NCBI GenBank assembly: GCA_031282535.1
Contig: JAITDM010000246.1
Location: 1-28,321, forward strand
Direction: 5' to 3'
Source of the DNA: Oscillospiraceae bacterium
GTDB lineage: Bacteria > Bacillota > Clostridia > Oscillospirales > UBA929
Length of the DNA stretch: 28,321 nucleotides
Of the stretch, positions 4,401-15,298 are shown piece after piece. Position 1 is the first letter of the stretch. Each line of letters begins with the position of its first letter. A model generated the notes under the pieces. The model saw only the letters and a list, made by a program, of their open reading frames with translations. It had not been told where the DNA came from and ran no database searches. Both the position numbers and the translations under genes were made by a program.

Positions 4401-7400
4401 TCGCGCCCACAGACTTGGGGAGATTTGTCCGTCTGGGGGCCGCGCTTTCGAGGTTTATGGCGCCCATCAGTGTGGCCACCGCCGTCCGAAGCTCCTGCGG
4501 GATGTGCTTCTTGTCCGAGGGCTTTAGCAGTTTCTGCGACAGTGCCGAGGCGTGCCGCATGATCTGCCCGCGCAGACGCTGCGCCGTTCGCGCTTCTCGG
4601 TCGGCGGCCTTCTCTGCCGTATACTTCTTCTTGAGCCGGTCCACGGCGTCAATGCGCCGCTGCCGCTCCTGTTTCATGGCGCTCTGGAACTTCTCCTTCG
4701 CCGCCTGCCGGATCTCCTTGATCCGGGCATTTTTCTCGGCACGCACCCGCGCCGTGCGCGCGTTGGCCGCATCGGTCTTCTGCCGCTCTCTTTGCACCGC
4801 GCTGGCCCGCGACTGCTCGGCTTTGTCCAGCGCCGTGGCGGCGCGGTCACGCTCTTTCAGCACGGCGCTGGCCCGCGACTGCTCCGCCCGGTCCAGCGCC
4901 GCAGCCGCGCGGTCACGCTCCCTCAACACCGCAGAAGCCCGCGACTGCTCCGCCTTGTCCATGGCCGTGGCGGGCAGCTGACGCACCTCGTCGCCGATCA
5001 GCCGGTCAATGATCTCGTTGCTGACGAACCCCACCGTCTCGCGCATCGCGCCGCGGTACGGATTTTCCCGCACGGGCCGCAGCGTCCCGGCCAGCTCGGC
5101 CAGATATTGCAACTGGTCCGACTCTGCCGTGATGCTGCTGGGGAAGTACGCCTCCCCAAACATGCCGCGCAGGTCTTCAAAGGCCGAATCAATGCTCTGG
5201 CCGTCGCGCGCCAGCACGAACCGGCCGAAGTTGGCCTTGCGGAAATCTTTATAGTCCGGAATGTCGGCCTGCAACTCCGTCGGGACTTTGATCCGGAGTT
5301 TCCGGATCCATTTCCGCATCTCGTCACGGAATTCCTGCCCAGACGGGTCTTGCAGCGCTGACGCGTTTTCCACGATGGTCGACGCGATGGCGTCCGCGCG
5401 CTCGCGGATCTCGGTCCAACTGCCGTCGTTCGCGATGAGCTCGCCCAACGTCTTCAAGTCCGCCGACAGCTCGTCCGTGGCGGCGGTGCTCTCGTACTCT
5501 TTCCGCAACGAATTTGCCAGCTTCCTCACGTCCGCCGGCCGGAGCTCCGCGCGCTCGGTGAGCTTCGACTCGCGCTTCCAGTATTCAACCTTCTCCGCCA
5601 GCAACTCGTTCTCCTCGCGCAGCGCCCACACTTCGGGCCGCTCTTCACGGGAGAACTGCGCTCCCTCCACGGAGTTTATGGCGTCCAGTCGATCCGCCTC
5701 AAAGTTATGCGCGTACATGATCAAGGGAATGCCAGCAGCCTCAAGGTCCGCTTCCAACTTGCGGTCGATGTTGTCGGGGATAACCGCCGCAAGCACCTCT
5801 GAGAACGGAACGGCCCGCGCCGGTTTCGCCTCGAAGTAGTCCCGCGGAGTCTCCGCGATTTCGCGCGCCAGTGTGGCGATTTCCTCCGCGGTCTCCGTCG
5901 TCACGGTGAACATGTCGGGCCACTTCTTCAAATACCTGTAGATACCGGCCACACTCTTCGACTTTTGGACAGCCTCCGCCATGGCCTCGGCGGCATCGGA
6001 TATCGTTCTAAAATCATTCGGATCCGGACGGTTGGAGACGAGCTTGCGCGCAAGTTCATCGATCCGGTTGCCGAATTCATCCCTGATATTCGACATACCA
6101 TACTCGGAGAGCCTCTGCAGGCGCGCCCTGTCAGCGCGGGCGTCCTCAATGCTTTTGTATGTCTTGGCCGCCGCTCCAGCGAACGAAGCTACATCGCCCC
6201 ATCCGCCCGTTCCGGCCGGCCTCTCGCGGGCCATCATGGCCACGGCGTTGTCTATCGTATAGTCGTTGTAAAGCTGCTCGAAGGATCGCCGGCGCCCGGA
6301 CGGCGTGTAAGGATCATTCTTGTTCCGAAGGCCGCGCTTTAACACAAGGCCGTCGGCTTTTTCCGCCAACCACGCCTCGTATGCTTCCTGTTCGATCTTT
6401 GATTTTATGTCGGCCTGCGTGGCATAGTGGTCATATTTCCCATCTTCGCGCAAAACCGGATCAAAGTCAGGGATCGTGTCCGCAGCGTACAAAAGGCGCA
6501 TGTCGTTGTGGTCGCGGTACGCCTTGATAAAATCGCCGCCATGCCACTCCAGTCTGTCGGTAATGTTGGTGTCGTAGAGAAAAGTCCAGGTTTCGCTGGG
6601 AAGACCGTGTTCCTTCGCGACGTCTCGCCCCCAGCGGTAGAGCGCTTGCGTTTTCTTTTCGTCCAGTTTGTATCCGACCTCGGGAAATATGGGCGTGTAT
6701 GCGTCGCCCCCATAGAGCCTGTTGCGCTTGTCCGCAGAAGGGTCAACAGTGTTGCGCCCGAAGATCAACGAGATCGGCCCGAAGTTCGGCTGGCCCAGCT
6801 CGGCCCGCGTCACAGCGATGGAGGGCATGGCGAGGCCGCCCAGTTCCAGGGCGTCCCTCAGATTCGTGGGGGTCAGGTTGTGCACGGCGATGAGGTCCCG
6901 CGTCGACTCCACAGGCTCTTCAAGGGAAAATTGCTCTTTTTCTGTAAAGTCCTTGACAGATGATTCTTCTTGTGGTACTCTGGACTTAGAACGAACATCG
7001 GCGGCTTTGCCGCTAACCCCCGACTGTATTTCGGGGGGGTGTTCGTTCGTTTTTTGTTTTTCTGCAGAAAAGCTGTACACAAAGTGTCCGTCCGTACGTT
7101 CTTTCACGTTGACCGTCACGCGGTATGGGGTTGTGTTATCTCCCTCATATTCCCGAAACAGGATGTCGTTGATGAAATAGTGCCACTGCCGAACGCCCCT
7201 GTGTGTCGCTGAGGTCTTCCCCTCTTCCCCCTTTGAGTAATTGTAAACAGACTCGCTCGCGATCTGATAATAATCATCTGCCAGATCAAGCGTTACGCGC
7301 TGATCAGAGTAAGACCCGTGCCGGTTTCCAATCATCAATTTTGTCGCGTCGCTCGCAACCTTTGGATCATAGGCAGGATCGAACTGCGCGTAGATCACGC

Positions 7401-10400
7401 GGTCCGCTCCGTTTTCGTGGAGCACAAGGCGGATCGGCTTTTGGGACCAAACATCTTGGATGTATTGCAGGATTTTCTCGGATTTTGCCAATTTTGGAGT
7501 GCCTTTGGGGAAGTTGCTTCGGTATATGCCGCGCCCAGTCTCTGGATCGCGCCCCTCATAGGAGAACTGCTCCGCCGCGCCCCTCTCCACCTGCGCCGCG
7601 CGCTCGCGCGCGACCTCCGAAAACTGCAACGTGGGGATATTCACCTCGATCCCGGCGTACGCGTCCGCCAGAATCTCTTCCAGAATTTCATCGTCGGACT
7701 TGTTGAAAAGCCCATATTCGTCCATATACACGCCAATAAGCGCGTTCAAATCCTCGTTTGAGAACTTGGTGAGAAGCATCTTCCGAGTCTCTTGAACGAG
7801 GTTTTTGTCTGTCCGGGCCAAAAGATGGTACTCTTCATGGGCCGCTATCTGTTCCACCGTCAGGAACGGATGGTCGGCCTTGATCCACATGCGCTTGCCG
7901 TCGGCAGACACCGCGCCGCGCGCCGTGCCCACCACGCCGTTCTCGCGAATCTCCATGTCGCCGGTGAAGTAAATCACCTGCACGCCCAGCTTCGCCATCT
8001 TGCGGCTCACTGCGCGCTCGGTATCGCTCCAGAGCTTCGCTGGCGTGATGTACATGCCCTTGCGCGTCGTGCCTGCGCTTATGCCCTGCGCGGCGGTGCT
8101 CTCGGCTACAACGCCAGCAGCTTTGACCGCACGGCGGAGATCCTCCGCTCGCGCTCTTTGGGCTCCATTCTCAGGCCCTGTTCTTTGGCCTGTTGATACT
8201 TCGGAAGCTGGTCCACCGGCAGCCACACCAGATTTCCGTGCTTGCCGTCCAGCGCCACCCGCATTTGCTTCTTCGCCGCCATTTGTCTCGCTCCCTTCAA
8301 TGCTGTTTGCATCGTCCCATCCGGCCTCGTAGGCCGACAGGGCTTGTTCCTCCGTGATCATGTCGTCCGTGCCCGGCGCGTACGTGGCGCGCGCCAAGCC
8401 GGCCTCGTAGTACCGCGTCATCTCATCTATGTACGTGCCGGCATCCTGCGCCGGATCATACTGCTCGTACAGCGCCACAGCGCCGCGCGAGTCCTCGCCC
8501 AGCGCCCGCGCCGCCTCGAACACCGCCGCTTTGCCCGTGGGCGCCGGCACGCTCTCGTCACGCTCCGTCACGCGGACGTCACGCGTGACATCCGCATCAG
8601 CCGCGCCAGCTTCCCGCGCCGCCTCGATCTGTGGCGGCGTCAGCACCGAATCCGCCGGCGCCTCGCGGCCATTGCGCGCCGCCTCGTACTGCTGCACAAA
8701 CGCCGGATAATAGTCCGCCGCCGCCACGTCCGGATTATACATCCGCTGCAGCGTGCGGCCGCCCACCGGCCCCAGCGTGTCGGCCATGTCCGCCATCGCC
8801 TGCGTGTCGCTGGCCGCCAGATCCGGCGTGCGCAGGTCTGCAACCGACAAGGAATCCTTGACGGTTGGGACGGCGCGCGCCATCCCCGCCTCCCCTACGA
8901 GGGGAGGTGACGCCGCAGCGGCGGAGGGGTTCGCCAACCCCTGCACCGACGCGCGCACCTGTGAAATCGGCGCGTCAGTGTTGATCTCCTGCCCGGTGTA
9001 CCGCGACAGAACCGCCAGCGCCTCTGGGGACCGCGCCAGCTCCGCCGCCTTGTTGCCGGACGGCGTTTCCCCGCGCAGGATTGTGGCGATGGTCTGCGCC
9101 TGCCTGCGCGCCTCGTAGACCGGCATCCCGGCCTCTGTAAGCTGCGCGACAATCGAAGACTGCTCAGGGGCCACCGGCGCCGGCTCAACCTGTGCCGGAC
9201 CAGCCTGCGCCTCCTGCTGAGGCGCCGCATACAGGAACGACAGGTCCCCGCCGGACTCTTTATACATCTGCGCCAGGCGCCCGATCTGGGCGTCCGTCGG
9301 CTCTGCATTTTGCAGGCTGTTTGCAAAATTGTACACAACGGTGCTCTGGTCAAAGCTCAACGCGCGACTCATGAGCGCCTCATATTTACCGGATTCCCGG
9401 ATCCCCACGCCGACCCTAGGCGCGCTCGCCTCTGTGTGAATCGCGCCGGGCAGCTCCAGCATTCCGGCCGTGACCGCGCCCAGAATGCCAGCGTAGAGTG
9501 CCTCGTCGGTGAAGATCTTGAATTCGTTGTTCTCGCCGAGCACGAGATTGCGCCACACAGGATCAAGAATTTCCTGCATGTACTCTTCCGAGAACTCCCC
9601 GGCGCCTTTCACGCCCAGCGTGAGCGCCGTGCGAAGAATCGCGTTGTCAATCTTGGCGATCGTGTTCTTCGCAATATTGCCCGTGAGCATTCCGCCCACC
9701 TTGCCGATGCCGCCGAGCAGGTAGGACAATCCGGCCTCCGACGCGCCCACCAGTACGCCGTACATCCGAGCCTGCTCCGGACTATATCCCTCCCGCAGCT
9801 GCTCGCCATACGCGCCGCCGTACGCCTGCACGCCCATCAAGCCCGCGCCGACGCCGGGCCCATACAGCGCGCCCGCCGCGATGGAAGGGGCCATGTTCGC
9901 CACGGTGCTCGTGATGTCGAAGACCGTGCCCATGGCGCCGTCGATGTTTTCCCGCGTGGCGGACTGCATGGCTGCGGCGCGGCTCAAGGGAAGCTGCTCG
10001 CCGGTGAGTGCCTGACGAAGGTTCGCTCCGGCGGTCCCGAGGCCGCCCTCCACGGCCACAGAAAGTTGCTTGAGCGCGCTGTCGCCCGCCCATTCGGCCT
10101 TTTTTTCGCCGCTGCGCATCGCAAATTGATCCCGCAGAATGTCGAGATACTTCTCGGCCTCTTCCTGGCCCTTTGTCTGGTACACGTAGTTGTACATCTG
10201 CCGCTCTTCCGGCGTGATGTAGTCCTGCGCTAAGGTCTTCCGTTCGAGTCCGCCCTGGATGTCGCTGGTGTAGTCCCAGACATTCGGCCGAGGTAACTCC
10301 GCCTCCGGCGCGTCGGCGAAACCCGGCGCGCTCCTGTAGGGTTCATACCGCAACGGCGCCTGCACGGCCTCCGCCTTCCTAATCTGGGACTGCTGCTCCC

Positions 10401-11002: not shown

Positions 11003-12958
11003 CTACTTCTTTACGAGAGACGTGGACCCCGTCCACGCCGCCGGCGCGAGCGACTTGAGGTTGACGGGACTCATGTTGATCGTCTTCTCGGCCGCAGCCA
11101 CCGTCGCGCTGTACTTGGCGGACAAGTACTGCTGATAGTTCGCGTAGTTCTTCACGTCGGCCGCCGCGGCCTTTTTGCGCGCGTTGAACTCGCTCTCCGT
11201 CATGATGCCGCTGTTCCCCGTCAAGGCAACGTACTCTGAGTATGTCTTCGGAGTTGGGTCGGAGAGGCCAAGGGCCGTATTGTAGAGATAATCCGCCTGG
11301 TCTTGCGCGAGATCCGTGGTCGCGACATACTTGAACACATCTATGTCGCTCTTGCCGGACTTCACCATATCCTGCGCGTGTGACAGGACGGTTTTGTAGT
11401 TGGCATCATTCGTGAACTGATTCGCGCCCGCGGCGGACCCCTTGAACATGCTCCACACCTGGCCCGTCTTGCTCTCGGTTAGGCCGGCGGAGAGCAACAT
11501 CTCATAGGCCGCCTCATCGCTGCCGGCGCCCCGCATGGCGGTAAGCAGGCCCGTGTAGTCTGTGCTGCCGCCGGCGCCCGTGCCGCCGCCGGACCCGCTG
11601 GACAGCGACTTCTGGCCGAGCGCCATTTGCAGCGCCCTGTCCTCGTCGTACTGCGCCTGCGCGGCGGCGATTTGGCTGTCTGTCCAGCCCATCGCCCTGT
11701 AGCCCGAGAAGTCGCCAACGGCGGCCAGCTGCTGAGCCTGCGCCTGCTGCTTGGCGTAGTCGTCGGTGCTCACGCCATAGTCAAACGTCTGGTTCCACTG
11801 GCTGTCGGCCACCTGGTCGCGGCCGACGGTGTAGTCATACGCCCGGTCGGTCTCGTAGACGTCGCGGTCGAACGACTGCTGCCACTGGTTGTCCGCCGCC
11901 GCCGCGCGGTCGACGGAGAAGTTCCGGTCCCAATCGTCAGAGAACACGCCGTAATCAAACGCGCGGTCAGTGTTGTACTGCCCCAGCTGGTCTTGATACT
12001 GGCCGTACTGCCGCGCGTAGTCGTCGGCAAACACGCCATAGTCGAAGCTGCGGTCCTGATTGTACTGCCCAAGATCGCTCTGATACTGTCCGAACTGGCG
12101 GCTGTAGTCGTCGGCGAACACGCCGTAATCAAACGCGCGGTTTTGGTTGTACTGGTTCAAGAGGGACTGGTACTTGGCGAAGTCCCCCTCTTCGAGGGCC
12201 ATCAGCAGTTGCGCGTTGTTGCGCTGGGTATTCCCCTCGTCCATATACATGCCATATGCCAGCTGCTGGAGTTCCGGGATCTTCCCAGCCAACTGGCTCA
12301 TATAGTTGTCGTACGATTGCTGGGCCGCGCTGCCGGCGTAGGAGCTTGCCAGGCCGCCGGTCCGGGCCGAAACCTGCCCAAGCGTGTCCTGCATGGCGCG
12401 CTGGCCCAGATTGGTGTACTCCTTTGAGTACTGCTGATAGAGCGGATCTTCCTCGTGATTATACGAGAAAGCCTCTCTGCCAAGGATCGCCTCTGTGAGC
12501 GCGTCAATCTGCGCCTGACGCTGGCTCACATACTCCGGCGCGGCGTCATACGAAAACTCTGGAATCGTGGGCGCAGTAGGCGCCACGCCGTCGTACGAAT
12601 ACTGCGGTATATCGGGCGCATTCGGCGCAGTGCCATTGTACGAATACTCCGGCACTGGCGTCTTCGAGGAAGAAGACGAAGACGAAGAGCTTGACGAAGA
12701 AGATCCAGACCCCGGCTTGGTGGCGCTCATCGTCGCGCCGCCGGCGATTGCCGTCTGAATCGGTCCGCTGCTCCCCGACAGGGAATCCGTATAATACTTG
12801 ATGTAATCGGTCGTGTGTGGTGCGTCTATTCCCTCAGTGTCGATCTTCTCATTGCGGAGGACTTGATACTGACCCGCCGCCGCATAGTCGCCCTTCGCCA
12901 CGGACTCATCAATGAGCTTTTGATAATCTTTCTCGTACCCGTACTGGTCGAGCGCCAT
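11003..12958 (-). CDS. Internal virion / ejection-type protein (651 aa) with repeats
   Basis: RBS GAGGGGG; Gln/Tyr-rich segment FSYNHEEDPLYQQY...RAMQDTLG...TGGLASSYA; located just before the giant ejection gene. Confidence 0.75.
   Translation of the reverse strand: MALDQYGYEKDYQKLIDESVAKGDYAAAGQYQVLRNEKIDTEGIDAPHTTDYIKYYTDSLSGSSGPIQTAIAGGATMSATKPGSGSSSSSSSSSSSSSKTPVPEYSYNGTAPNAPDIPQYSYDGVAPTAPTIPEFSYDAAPEYVSQRQAQIDALTEAILGREAFSYNHEEDPLYQQYSKEYTNLGQRAMQDTLGQVSARTGGLASSYAGSAAQQSYDNYMSQLAGKIPELQQLAYGMYMDEGNTQRNNAQLLMALEEGDFAKYQSLLNQYNQNRAFDYGVFADDYSRQFGQYQSDLGQYNQDRSFDYGVFADDYARQYGQYQDQLGQYNTDRAFDYGVFSDDWDRNFSVDRAAAADNQWQQSFDRDVYETDRAYDYTVGRDQVADSQWNQTFDYGVSTDDYAKQQAQAQQLAAVGDFSGYRAMGWTDSQIAAAQAQYDEDRALQMALGQKSLSSGSGGGTGAGGSTDYTGLLTAMRGAGSDEAAYEMLLSAGLTESKTGQVWSMFKGSAAGANQFTNDANYKTVLSHAQDMVKSGKSDIDVFKYVATTDLAQDQADYLYNTALGLSDPTPKTYSEYVALTGNSGIMTESEFNARKKAAAADVKNYANYQQYLSAKYSATVAAAEKTINMSPVNLKSLAPAAWTGSTSLVKK
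11920..12154 (-). repeat. About 2.7 copies of an 87-bp (29-aa) repeat, QYNxxRxFDYGVFxDD
   Basis: TTGTACTG recurs at 11973, 12060 and 12147. Confidence 0.9.
12530..12710 (-). repeat. Poly-Ser tract followed by about three 15-aa repeats, P(E/Q)(Y/F)SY(N/D)GxAPxAPxI
   Basis: Translation SGSSSSSSSSSSSSKTPVPEYSYNGTAPNAPDIPQYSYDGVAPTAPTIPEFSYDAAPEY. Confidence 0.8.
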
Positions 12959-13125: not shown

Positions 13126-14930
13126 CAATACTCACTCCCGACTCTGAACTCTCTGACGAAACTGCGCAACATGCACCGGCCCAGCCCGCTGATCCGGACC
13201 ACAAACCGGTCGCACCGCGTGGGCACAATCGGCACCATGGCGGTCTTTGCGTGCTCATCGTGCGACAAAAACACCTGCCGGAACGGCTCGTTGTCGCCGC
13301 GAACCTCGACCTTGAACCACGCCCCCGGATCCAAGTCCACACGCAACATCAGGCGCGAATACGACTTCCTCCCATGCGTGGTTTCCGTGAAGGGGCAGAA
13401 CGTCATGCCCCACTCGATGCGGCCCTCTTCTGAGTCGTCCTGGCCGGTCCGATAAATCCGGCCTGTCTCCCAGTCGAGATAGTACAGAACGCCATCCAGC
13501 GCCGCGAAATCGAGCGCCCTGGTGGCGTCTTCTCGCAACCACATACCGCGAAGTGTGTCAAAGACATACAGCTCCGGCGAAAGCCCATCGCGCACCATGG
13601 ATATGTAATAACGCTGCCCATCTGTCCCCGCCACAGCGCCGCCATACTCCCGCGTGCCGAACACGCCAGAGATCAGCGACGGCGCGCCGCCGGTGTAGGC
13701 ATAGACGCCCTTGCGGCCTTTATAATACAGCACCTCATTGATGATACTCAGACTCTTTGAACTGCCCATCTGCACGCCTGGAATCGTGTAGGTGTACACA
13801 GTATAGTTCTCCGGCAGATTGCCCAGCACCTTGTGCAGGCAGTCTTCCTTAAAGAACAAAATCGCCGACGAAAACGCGGCGCATCCGGTGAAATCGCCGT
13901 CGGTCCCCACCGCCACGGCGTAGCTGTCTGTCGCCAGCCCGTCGTACACGAAGAAGTTCCGCGGATCCCCCAGCGCCGAGGCGTAGATGGTGTTTCCCTC
14001 GCATCCCCAGAGGCGATTGTCCGCCTCGCAGATGAAGTCAAGGTCGGGGATCTTCCTGGCCACCGTCACGGCCCCGGACTCTACGCCCTCAGTGAATGTG
14101 CCCTCTGCAAATGTCAGCGTTCCCGCTGACACCTCTTTGATGATTCTAGTGCCGTTATTGTCGGGGAGAGCCTCACACCCCGAAATCTCTACAGCACTGC
14201 CAACCTCGAAAATCTTTGTGAAGTCACTGCCGGTGTATGCGGCAGTATGCCGCGTGATAATCAGTTGCACTTGAAGGGTATATGCATATTTTTGAAAGAC
14301 AACCCCGTACGATTTATCCGATCTTTTGATAATGTCGCCAATCATTACGTTTTGCACGGGGATTTTATGCCCTCCGCCCAACACGACGTTCCCTGTATCT
14401 TTGTCTATTGATGCAGTTTCGTACACCATTATAATTGTGTCAGTGTTATAAGGGAGGCCCATAGAACCGGGTTGCGAAAAGTCTATGTATCCGGACATGC
14501 TGTCCGTGAGGGTACTATCGGCGAACTCCGCATAGCCCTCCAAGATCGTCGCCGACGCGCCGAGCGACCCGAAGTCGCCAGTCGCAGTGTCGTAGTAGAC
14601 CTTATCGGGGAAGATCACAATCTTGGTGTTGATGGTGGCGAACTGCTTCTCCCCCGGCGTCACAGTCCCGACGGACATGCCGCCGTAAATGAACTCTGTG
14701 CCCTTCACAAAGCACAGATTTCCGCGCGCATACAGCGCACTCACGCCCTCCAAGGCCCCCTCGCGCTTGCGTCCTGCGCGCTGGGACATGCATGGATAAT
14801 GCGCCGAAGACAGGTTGTGCGACTCGGCCAACTCGCCGTCGCGATACCCCTGCCCATAGTTGATTCCGCCGAAGGCGATAATCTGCGGCTTTTCCTTGGG
14901 CGGGAGCGTCTTGATCTGAGGCAGTCTCAC
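13125..14930 (-). CDS. Tail stabilization / nozzle-like protein
   Basis: Likely GTG start at 14930 overlapping the upstream TGA (MRLPQIK). Beta-propeller-like content (DLDFICEADNRLWGC...IYASALGDPRNF...GDFTGC) and typical position before the ejection genes. Confidence 0.7.
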   Translation of the reverse strand: MRLPQIKTLPPKEKPQIIAFGGINYGQGYRDGELAESHNLSSAHYPCMSQRAGRKREGALEGVSALYARGNLCFVKGTEFIYGGMSVGTVTPGEKQFATINTKIVIFPDKVYYDTATGDFGSLGASATILEGYAEFADSTLTDSMSGYIDFSQPGSMGLPYNTDTIIMVYETASIDKDTGNVVLGGGHKIPVQNVMIGDIIKRSDKSYGVVFQKYAYTLQVQLIITRHTAAYTGSDFTKIFEVGSAVEISGCEALPDNNGTRIIKEVSAGTLTFAEGTFTEGVESGAVTVARKIPDLDFICEADNRLWGCEGNTIYASALGDPRNFFVYDGLATDSYAVAVGTDGDFTGCAAFSSAILFFKEDCLHKVLGNLPENYTVYTYTIPGVQMGSSKSLSIINEVLYYKGRKGVYAYTGGAPSLISGVFGTREYGGAVAGTDGQRYYISMVRDGLSPELYVFDTLRGMWLREDATRALDFAALDGVLYYLDWETGRIYRTGQDDSEEGRIEWGMTFCPFTETTHGRKSYSRLMLRVDLDPGAWFKVEVRGDNEPFRQVFLSHDEHAKTAMVPIVPTRCDRFVVRISGLGRCMLRSFVREFRVGSEY

Positions 14931-15298
14931 CACCACACCCCCCGCAAAGAAGGCCGCCGCGGCATGTGCGTGCGTTGAAGGTGCTTGCACAGCGCGTCAT
15001 ACTCGACATTGAACGCCGTCGCGGTGTTTTGATACTCCGCCGTCTCGCCCCGATGTGACTCCATCTGGGCGCGCAGGTAGGTATCATACAGGCCGTCATA
15101 CGGCGAATGCGTCAACAGGGGCTTGTCCCCATCACGCGGATACTCCCGCGGAGGGTTCCCCGGAATGCAGAGTCGGAGGAACACTTCGCGCCACAACTGC
15201 CCGTCGAGCTGAATTAGCCAACGGGCCTTATCCTCATCCGGGTACGCGTTGGGCGAAAGCCGGTCAACGCGCGCGATGACTTCGTTGATTGTGGGCAT
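14927..15298 (-). CDS. Hypothetical virion protein, possible head-tail adaptor (123 aa)
   Basis: Good RBS, helical protein (MPTINEVIARVDRLSPNAY...PYDGLYDTYL), immediately upstream of the tail protein. Confidence 0.55.
   Translation of the reverse strand: MPTINEVIARVDRLSPNAYPDEDKARWLIQLDGQLWREVFLRLCIPGNPPREYPRDGDKPLLTHSPYDGLYDTYLRAQMESHRGETAEYQNTATAFNVEYDALCKHLQRTHMPRRPSLRGVWW

Follow-up and report, generated by a model that had tools for sequence, protein, structure and literature searches.

Can a short stretch of one giant gene encode a second, separate protein in another reading frame? This question is raised by a 28,321-nucleotide stretch of DNA from an Oscillospiraceae bacterium (assembly GCA_031282535.1, contig JAITDM010000246.1, positions 1 to 28,321; hereafter the window). 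Its longest open reading frame (ORF) is the giant gene P0001 (1426-10983, minus strand), which spans 3,185 codons. An initial annotation, made from the letters alone, had proposed that a 58-codon gene lies hidden in the +1 frame of this giant gene, directly before a domain with an HExxH motif. Reading of the minus strand confirmed every element of the proposed gene: a Shine-Dalgarno sequence (SD), AAGGGAG, at 8291-8297, placed by direct reading 8 nt before the start codon, an ATG at 8280-8282 that sits inside the host codons AAT GGC, 58 codons and a TAG stop at 8106-8108. The nested gene occupies 8106-8282 on the minus strand, and its product is denoted P0002. The arrangement goes well beyond what chance would produce. 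Judged from comparative sequence evidence, it is very probably a real and separately translated gene.

The base composition of the overlap indicates which of the two frames carries the coding signature. Over these ~180 nt, the nested frame has a GC content by codon position of 0.66/0.36/0.81, compared with 0.81/0.66/0.36 for the host frame, and the whole giant gene displays 0.63/0.45/0.79. Since the pattern of the overlap resembles that of the whole giant gene only in the nested frame, the gene-like signature is that of the nested frame. The frame switch in codon bias that had been described thus holds, with a GC content at third codon positions (GC3) of 0.81 in the nested frame versus 0.36 in the host frame. 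A sliding scan over the 9,558 nt of the giant gene reveals a single sustained GC3 frame flip, which is the nested stretch. The initial annotation had gone further and suggested that effector modules carry their own hidden regulators within the same DNA; this generalization finds no support here, as no second frame flip is present in the giant gene. In the host frame, the DNA of the overlap (8104-8283, minus strand) encodes residues 901-960 of the giant protein, a low-complexity Gly/Ala/Arg/Ser/Glu/Gln linker in which the residues G, A, S, R, E, Q, P and T make up 80%. This composition agrees with the description of the host product as a Gly/Ala/Arg linker directly before the HExxH domain. The nested SD is unpaired in the predicted local minimum free energy RNA fold, and the fold itself is ordinary (z -0.67). 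A search for an internal promoter or terminator of the nested gene found none, and the gene is therefore presumably read off the mRNA of the giant gene.

The same arrangement recurs at homologous loci. Three full-length relatives of the giant protein, 32-44% identical to it in the HExxH domain, all carry the +1 ORF, its stop and the GC3 flip (3/3). Relatives of the giant protein become alignable at the linker and not before; what lies upstream of it differs among them. To avoid search bias, loci were then chosen by the downstream HExxH domain only, blind to the giant ORFs. The resulting domain-anchored set comprised 9 IMG/VR contigs and 23 GTDB genomes, the latter from Oscillospiraceae, Acutalibacteraceae, Faecousia, Pseudoflavonifractor, Agathobaculum and one Lachnospiraceae metagenome-assembled genome (MAG). 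A homologous +1 ORF within an open host frame was found in 31 of these 32 loci, ending anywhere from 81 nt inside to 108 nt before the start of the HExxH match. Likewise, a six-frame search of 400 genomes of the order with a profile of the nested family (alignment A2) returned 11 non-self places, and at eight of these a +1-frame nested copy immediately precedes an HExxH domain. The same profile matched none of 400 genomes drawn from the phylum outside this order, and tblastn and blastn searches against 50,697 phage records yielded zero relatives. The frame relation, the start and the stop are shared by more than 40 assemblies produced independently in different studies, one isolate genome included.

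These loci are far from being copies of one another. Clustering the 34 aligned nested proteins at 60% identity gave 26 clusters, and the median identity between pairs was 32%. The GC3 flip was seen at all 34 loci (overlap mean GC3 0.74 nested versus 0.38 host). The initial annotation had named stops in the +1 frame and selection acting on the host frame alone among the outcomes that would speak against a nested gene. At the sequence level, neither of these was found across more than 40 homologous loci: the +1 frame is free of stops, and the SD and the ATG are kept.

The start signals are conserved as well. An ATG upstream of the conserved protein core is present at every locus, and 32 of 33 nested ATGs are preceded, at a distance of 5-11 nt, by a 5-7 nt core of AAGGAGGTG; applied to the other 2,606 ATGs of those loci, the same test was positive for 5%. 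The N-terminal tails, from the ATG to the conserved core, differ among loci in both length and sequence. At several loci a nested-frame stop lies no more than 2 codons upstream of the nested ATG, which favours initiation at this codon and disfavours frameshifting into the nested frame. Termination-reinitiation yielding a separate peptidase product was considered and rejected, as a conserved host-frame start near the nested stop is absent.

Selection on the two frames was assessed in the manner of OLGenie with our own script, in which sites are classed by the effect of a change in both frames, using 52 gap-free codons and 14 phylogenetically separate pairs. Divergence amounted to 0.27 for sites nonsynonymous in both frames (NN), 0.48 for sites nonsynonymous in the host and synonymous in the nested frame (NS) and 0.28 for sites synonymous in the host and nonsynonymous in the nested frame (SN). 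The NN/NS ratio of 0.57 (bootstrap confidence interval (CI) 0.49-0.65), with NS exceeding NN in 13 of the 14 pairs, indicates that the nested protein is under purifying selection, and it is similar to the pN/pS of 0.50 obtained for the HExxH domain from the same pairs. The NN/SN ratio, in turn, was 0.97 (CI 0.84-1.11), indicating that the host amino-acid sequence in the overlap is under no detectable constraint. The two-frame substitution test thus places purifying selection in the nested and not in the host frame, as expected if the proposed gene is genuine. The constraint on the nested frame also explains the weak BLASTP similarity of the host frame across the linker.

The host frame is nevertheless kept free of stops. 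When the nested protein of each locus was recoded by synonymous codons sampled according to the codon usage of that locus, 108 host-frame stops were expected over the 34 loci and none was observed. In the third frame, which served as a control, 124 stops were observed versus 94 expected. Together these comparisons indicate that the host frame is selected merely to stay open, as an uninterrupted linker.

What kind of protein does the nested gene encode? The aligned members share the core Y-L-M-E-x-x-D/N-G-x-x-V-R/W-V/L-P-x-S-K-L-E-x-W-x-x-A-Q, and the helix after this core typically ends I-Y/F-G. An AlphaFold2 (AF2) model based on 35 homologues (alignment A2; predicted local distance difference test (pLDDT) 80) contains a beta-hairpin, formed by residues 8-12 and 18-22, and helices at residues 23-35 and 41-57. 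The folded product with a beta hairpin and a helix that had been anticipated is borne out by this model, which adds a second helix. Searches of the nested family against Pfam and PHROGs gave no convincing match (22 weak Pfam matches were listed at E<=1 for the 35 members). A profile search of the PDB reached a best E of 0.036, to an unrelated coiled coil, and a feature search of the ESM Atlas found nothing. Comparison of the fold with the PDB, AFDB clusters, BFVD and the Atlas, by Foldseek and by shape, gave no match at E<=0.001, with template modelling (TM) scores of about 0.5 or below. The nested protein thus founds a new, unannotated family of small and conserved alpha/beta proteins.

Two known families were considered and rejected. 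The MazE/AbrB family (SpoVT-AbrB, PF04014) was examined because D-G-x-x-V-R-V-P-x-x-x-L recalls G-x-x-x-V-R-I-P-x-x-L. Alignment of A2 with 20 PF04014 domains from related genomes by hhalign gave a probability of 0.3%, and no A2 member matched PF04014 at E<=1. AbrB-like models appeared as weak fold neighbours (E 0.66-0.75, TM <0.35). TnpV was not among the 22 weak Pfam matches listed, and the nested protein is half as long (58 versus ~117 aa).

The small domain also occurs in ordinary proteins, read in frame. A phmmer search with the single peptide against 1.84 billion representatives returned one true match, a free-standing 187-aa protein from a genome of the same genus that carries the domain as its C-terminal 50 residues and stops at the same position (40% identity, E 1.3e-11); three other matches were rejected as eukaryote-like tandem-repeat junk. 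The gene of the 187-aa protein (L002:892-1455, plus strand, genome G005) follows two XRE regulators in a lysogeny-like module, and downstream of it come an ORF of 154 aa that looks paralogous and one of 63 aa that contains an HExxH motif (L002:1935-2126). None of these three ORFs had a Pfam match. A search for larger proteins that contain the small domain in frame returned an Mrr-type protein alone. In this 523-aa protein, the domain sits mid-way in a chain whose N-terminal part is an Mrr-type endonuclease domain and whose C-terminus is rich in Cys and His; the chain also has a membrane helix, and an XRE-type regulator adjoins the gene. It lies on contig C6 of genome G012, which holds two copies of the small domain ~25 kb apart (L046 and L055:928-2496, minus strand). 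One of them lies nested in a giant gene, ahead of its HExxH domain, and the other is the in-frame copy of the 523-aa protein; the two are diverged, and so do not stem from a recent duplication.

Immediately downstream of the nested gene lies the HExxH domain of the giant protein (7594-8121, minus strand; residues 955-1130), which starts at the nested-gene end and holds its HEEYH motif at 7825-7839 on the same strand. An AF2 model of this domain (alignment A3) has a pLDDT of 94. Across 28 homologues in this alignment H95, E96 and H99 are invariant, and a downstream EE..ADAYA motif in a later helix contains an invariant E149 and an E148 kept in at least 90% of the sequences. The alignment and the model thus display the combination that defines zincin-like metallopeptidases, an HExxH motif together with an acidic third ligand from a later helix. 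A conserved His at a strand end (ADH) fits the phage-type clade of zincins described in PMC5512222. The domain has neither a Pfam match nor a PDB sequence match, and Foldseek returned nothing at E<=0.001. The top VIA-align matches among solved structures are zincins, with PprI/IrrE and an ImmA-like regulator nearest, both at Z 6.2, followed by lethal factor, PPEP, Wss1 and ArdC, scores that lie in the middling range according to the program's own note.

The surroundings of the giant gene suggest a role in the virion. The window is a phage late region that encodes, upstream of the giant gene, a large terminase, a portal, a major head protein and an internal virion protein. The giant gene is the second gene downstream of the internal virion protein gene (13128-14990, minus strand; phrog_511, E 4e-61), and a gene for a 651-aa protein without known function (11006-12958, minus strand) lies between them. 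These two upstream genes suggest that the giant protein belongs to the ejection or internal-protein set. Its C-terminal part matches phrog_22978, and residues 1350-1532 form a PBECR5 nuclease domain (Pfam, E 1.7e-44). PBECR5 and HExxH domains are thus combined in one giant protein of a mobile element, the hallmark of the polyvalent proteins of phages and conjugative elements, a class described by Iyer et al. 2017 (PMC5512222). Zincin-like peptidases are the commonest hub domain of these proteins and have been proposed to process the polyprotein (PMC5512222). We conclude that the giant protein is a polyvalent and probably an internal-virion protein of a phage. Further along, residues 2009-2070 (window ~4770-4960, minus strand) consist of three tandem units of ~21-22 aa, rich in A/E/Q/R and of the type D-K-A-E-Q-S-R-A-S-A-V. 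The unit resembles the host-frame linker of relatives (..S-E-Q-S-R-A-A-S..) at the nested gene, a likeness that may be a chance effect of low complexity.

Which of the two readings of the overlap came first? The initial annotation had called the small gene overprinted, and this direction is probably reversed. The small gene has genome-like codons, its residues are constrained and its domain is found in frame in ordinary proteins elsewhere, while the host frame is skewed and unconstrained. By the logic used for dating overlapping genes (PMC3494269), the small gene is therefore probably the older reading and the linker the newer overprint. Behind upstream sequences that are unrelated to one another, the nested ORF and the HExxH domain keep occurring as a pair, which indicates that they behave as one module. 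It is probable that the small gene once sat upstream of a peptidase gene, and that module fusion read across it.

This leads to the following proposed mechanism. Ribosomes would start at the nested SD and ATG on the late mRNA and make a protein of ~58 aa, while those translating the giant gene would decode this stretch in the frame one base earlier, as a flexible, unconstrained linker. The linker would join the N-terminal part of the giant protein to the zincin-like HExxH peptidase domain, having been created as an overprint when modules fused across the older small gene. The small protein, made from the same mRNA, could meet the nascent peptidase domain during synthesis. Taken as a whole, a nested gene in a linker, with an origin by fusion and a peptidase partner, is likely the best explanation of the locus. 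As for the single question of function, the strict genetic linkage to the zincin domain tentatively suggests that the small protein works with or on the neighbouring peptidase, as an inhibitor, a chaperone or a switch. The initial annotation had proposed an immunity protein, an inhibitor or a chaperone for the neighbouring effector, and this linkage is the one line of evidence that points in such a direction. Complex prediction for A2 and A3 gave a median score of 0.02, which neither supports nor contradicts such a partnership and was used neither way. A bolder version, which we regard as rather unlikely, is that the small protein serves as a dedicated switch that prevents the processing peptidase of the polyvalent protein from acting in the producing cell before packaging or ejection, and that linkers are a regular, overlooked habitat for hidden genes. 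If so, the switch would dock on the nascent peptidase domain from the same mRNA, and many 'linkers' in giant proteins of mobile elements would be older genes read through by fusion.

Some rival accounts accept the nested frame as it stands and differ in what becomes of it. Its product may be an independent effector or regulator, acting in host takeover or anti-defence, that happens to be lodged in a permissive linker; we consider this the main rival and about as probable as a partnership with the peptidase. Copies of the domain occur without a zincin in the same protein, one fused to an Mrr-type endonuclease that has a membrane segment and one at the end of an early-operon protein beside XRE regulators, and the lack of constraint on the host frame does make the overlap a permissive site. 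However, a free rider ought to turn up in further linkers as well, and the 9.5-kb gene has no other flip, whereas the nested ORF precedes one HExxH clade in 31/32 and 8/11 cases despite differing upstream sequences. Alternatively, the small gene could be a fossil, swallowed by fusion and still recognizable as a frame, yet no longer translated. Its ancestral look, with genome-like codons and a domain known from ordinary proteins, would suit this idea. What looks like a decayed remnant of the module does exist: at L053:1217-2326 (minus strand, genome G190) a 163-aa ORF with a degenerate small domain and a 369-aa ORF overlap, the latter reading as the typical G/R/E-rich linker, and no intact HExxH domain was detected downstream. 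An untranslated frame, however, would neither stay open nor keep its ATG and SD at 32 of 33 loci, and an NN/NS of 0.57 across lineages of only ~32% identity makes the fossil account highly improbable.

Recoding and assembly error would produce the same picture by other routes. Internal SD-like sequences can stimulate frameshifting, as in prfB and dnaX, and a +1 shift near the SD-like sequence, followed by a stop at the TAG, would give a truncated N-terminal product ending in the small domain, a domain that can indeed sit in larger proteins. What stays invariant, however, is an SD and an ATG spaced as for initiation, and not a slippery site. The stops within 2 codons upstream of the ATG at several loci leave no conserved window for a shift, and the N-terminal tails vary in length and sequence; there is accordingly very little chance that the locus is recoded. 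The source assembly is a fragmented MAG (68% complete, 311 contigs) from a termite-gut metagenome, in which two compensating indels could have created the second frame. The recurrence of the layout in more than 40 independent assemblies, the isolate genome among them, makes such an artefact exceedingly improbable. The comparative data thus contradict the fossil, the frameshift and the artefact, which jointly retain a small share of the probability at most.

Several observations weigh against a nested gene that partners the peptidase. In one divergent HExxH homologue, L041, the upstream DNA, of which 204 nt are available, lacks a nested ORF. The small domain also occurs in proteins without a zincin, and so may not be peptidase-specific. 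Sequence and fold searches of the small protein yield no known relatives. The distances behind the selection ratios are uncorrected or Jukes-Cantor and were taken on partly saturated pairs. The one public run that holds the sequence is a termite-gut DNA metagenome (share of words 0.71), and no RNA run was found. With regard to L041 itself (contig URWG01000095.1, 1-645), the 204 nt upstream contain stops in all three frames and look non-coding, and the HExxH domain appears to begin its own gene.

Embedded +1 genes are known, and it is the small-protein family that is new. In Bacillus subtilis, comS comprises 46 codons lying out of frame in a nonribosomal peptide synthetase module of srfAB, with its own start, and its product protects ComK from degradation; the gene is confined to a narrow Bacillus group. 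The likeness to the present case is a small peptide gene with its own start, out of frame in a giant multi-module gene of a Firmicute. In contrast to the nested gene, comS lies inside an enzymatic module rather than a linker, and its regulatory function is known. Likewise, in ImmA/ImmR, IrrE(PprI)/DdrO and CapP/CapH a zincin of the COG2856 type goes with a small partner that is the substrate of the peptidase. Here too a small protein is encoded just upstream of a zincin-like domain of similar predicted fold. In those systems, however, the partners are helix-turn-helix (HTH) repressors encoded by separate, non-overlapping genes, while the nested protein has no HTH; the structural similarity of COG2856 peptidases to the HExxH domain is modest (Z 6.2).

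Among phages, the closest layout is that of lambda Rz/Rz1, where a larger phage gene contains an entire small gene on the same strand, shifted to the +1 frame and with its own start (PMC5295617, PMC6139136). The two proteins come from a single late mRNA and cooperate. Rz and Rz1, however, are lysis proteins of Gram-negative hosts, Rz1 being a lipoprotein, whereas here the host is a 3,185-codon virion gene of a Clostridia phage, the overlap is an unconstrained linker and the small protein belongs to a new family without a signal peptide; there is no sequence relation between the two cases. The overprinted genes of Microviridae are likewise dual-coding, with one frame of ancestral-like codons and another that is skewed and encodes disorder (PMC3494269, PMC9865509). 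There the novel frame is usually the short gene, whereas here the short gene looks ancestral and the linker novel, and it is found in a large double-stranded DNA phage under no obvious size pressure. Our literature searches turned up no account of a gene embedded in the gene of a phage polyvalent protein, and Iyer et al. (PMC5512222) make no mention of overlaps or frameshifts.

Long same-strand overlaps in bacteria and large double-stranded DNA phages are rare and usually poorly supported. The present case comes with conserved starts, frame-specific selection and enforced openness over ~26 diverged lineages. The small protein and the zincin domain form a fixed two-part module inside polyvalent virion proteins, and this gives a testable way into how such proteins are processed and activated (PMC5512222). 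The locus also suggests an evolutionary route in which giant proteins grow by reading through a small gene, whose alternative frame becomes a linker. Giant genes of mobile elements merit scans for frame-specific codon signals.

As a small gene inside a longer ORF, the family is hidden from gene callers. In a collection of 5.8 billion proteins it appears as 213 clusters of orphan ORFs of 50-100 aa, mostly on short contigs. The inspected calls on long contigs that seemed 'free-standing' were considered as a possible ancestral layout and rejected: they reflect a scaffold gap, contig ends or the choice of the caller, and the host frame is open. At L057, L058, L061 and L059/L060, public calls of the small ORF are confined to places where a scaffold gap or a contig end breaks the giant ORF, and at L059/L060 the caller took the small ORF and a truncated downstream gene even though the host frame is open upstream. 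This pattern of public gene calls for the small ORF amounts to a systematic blind spot of annotation.

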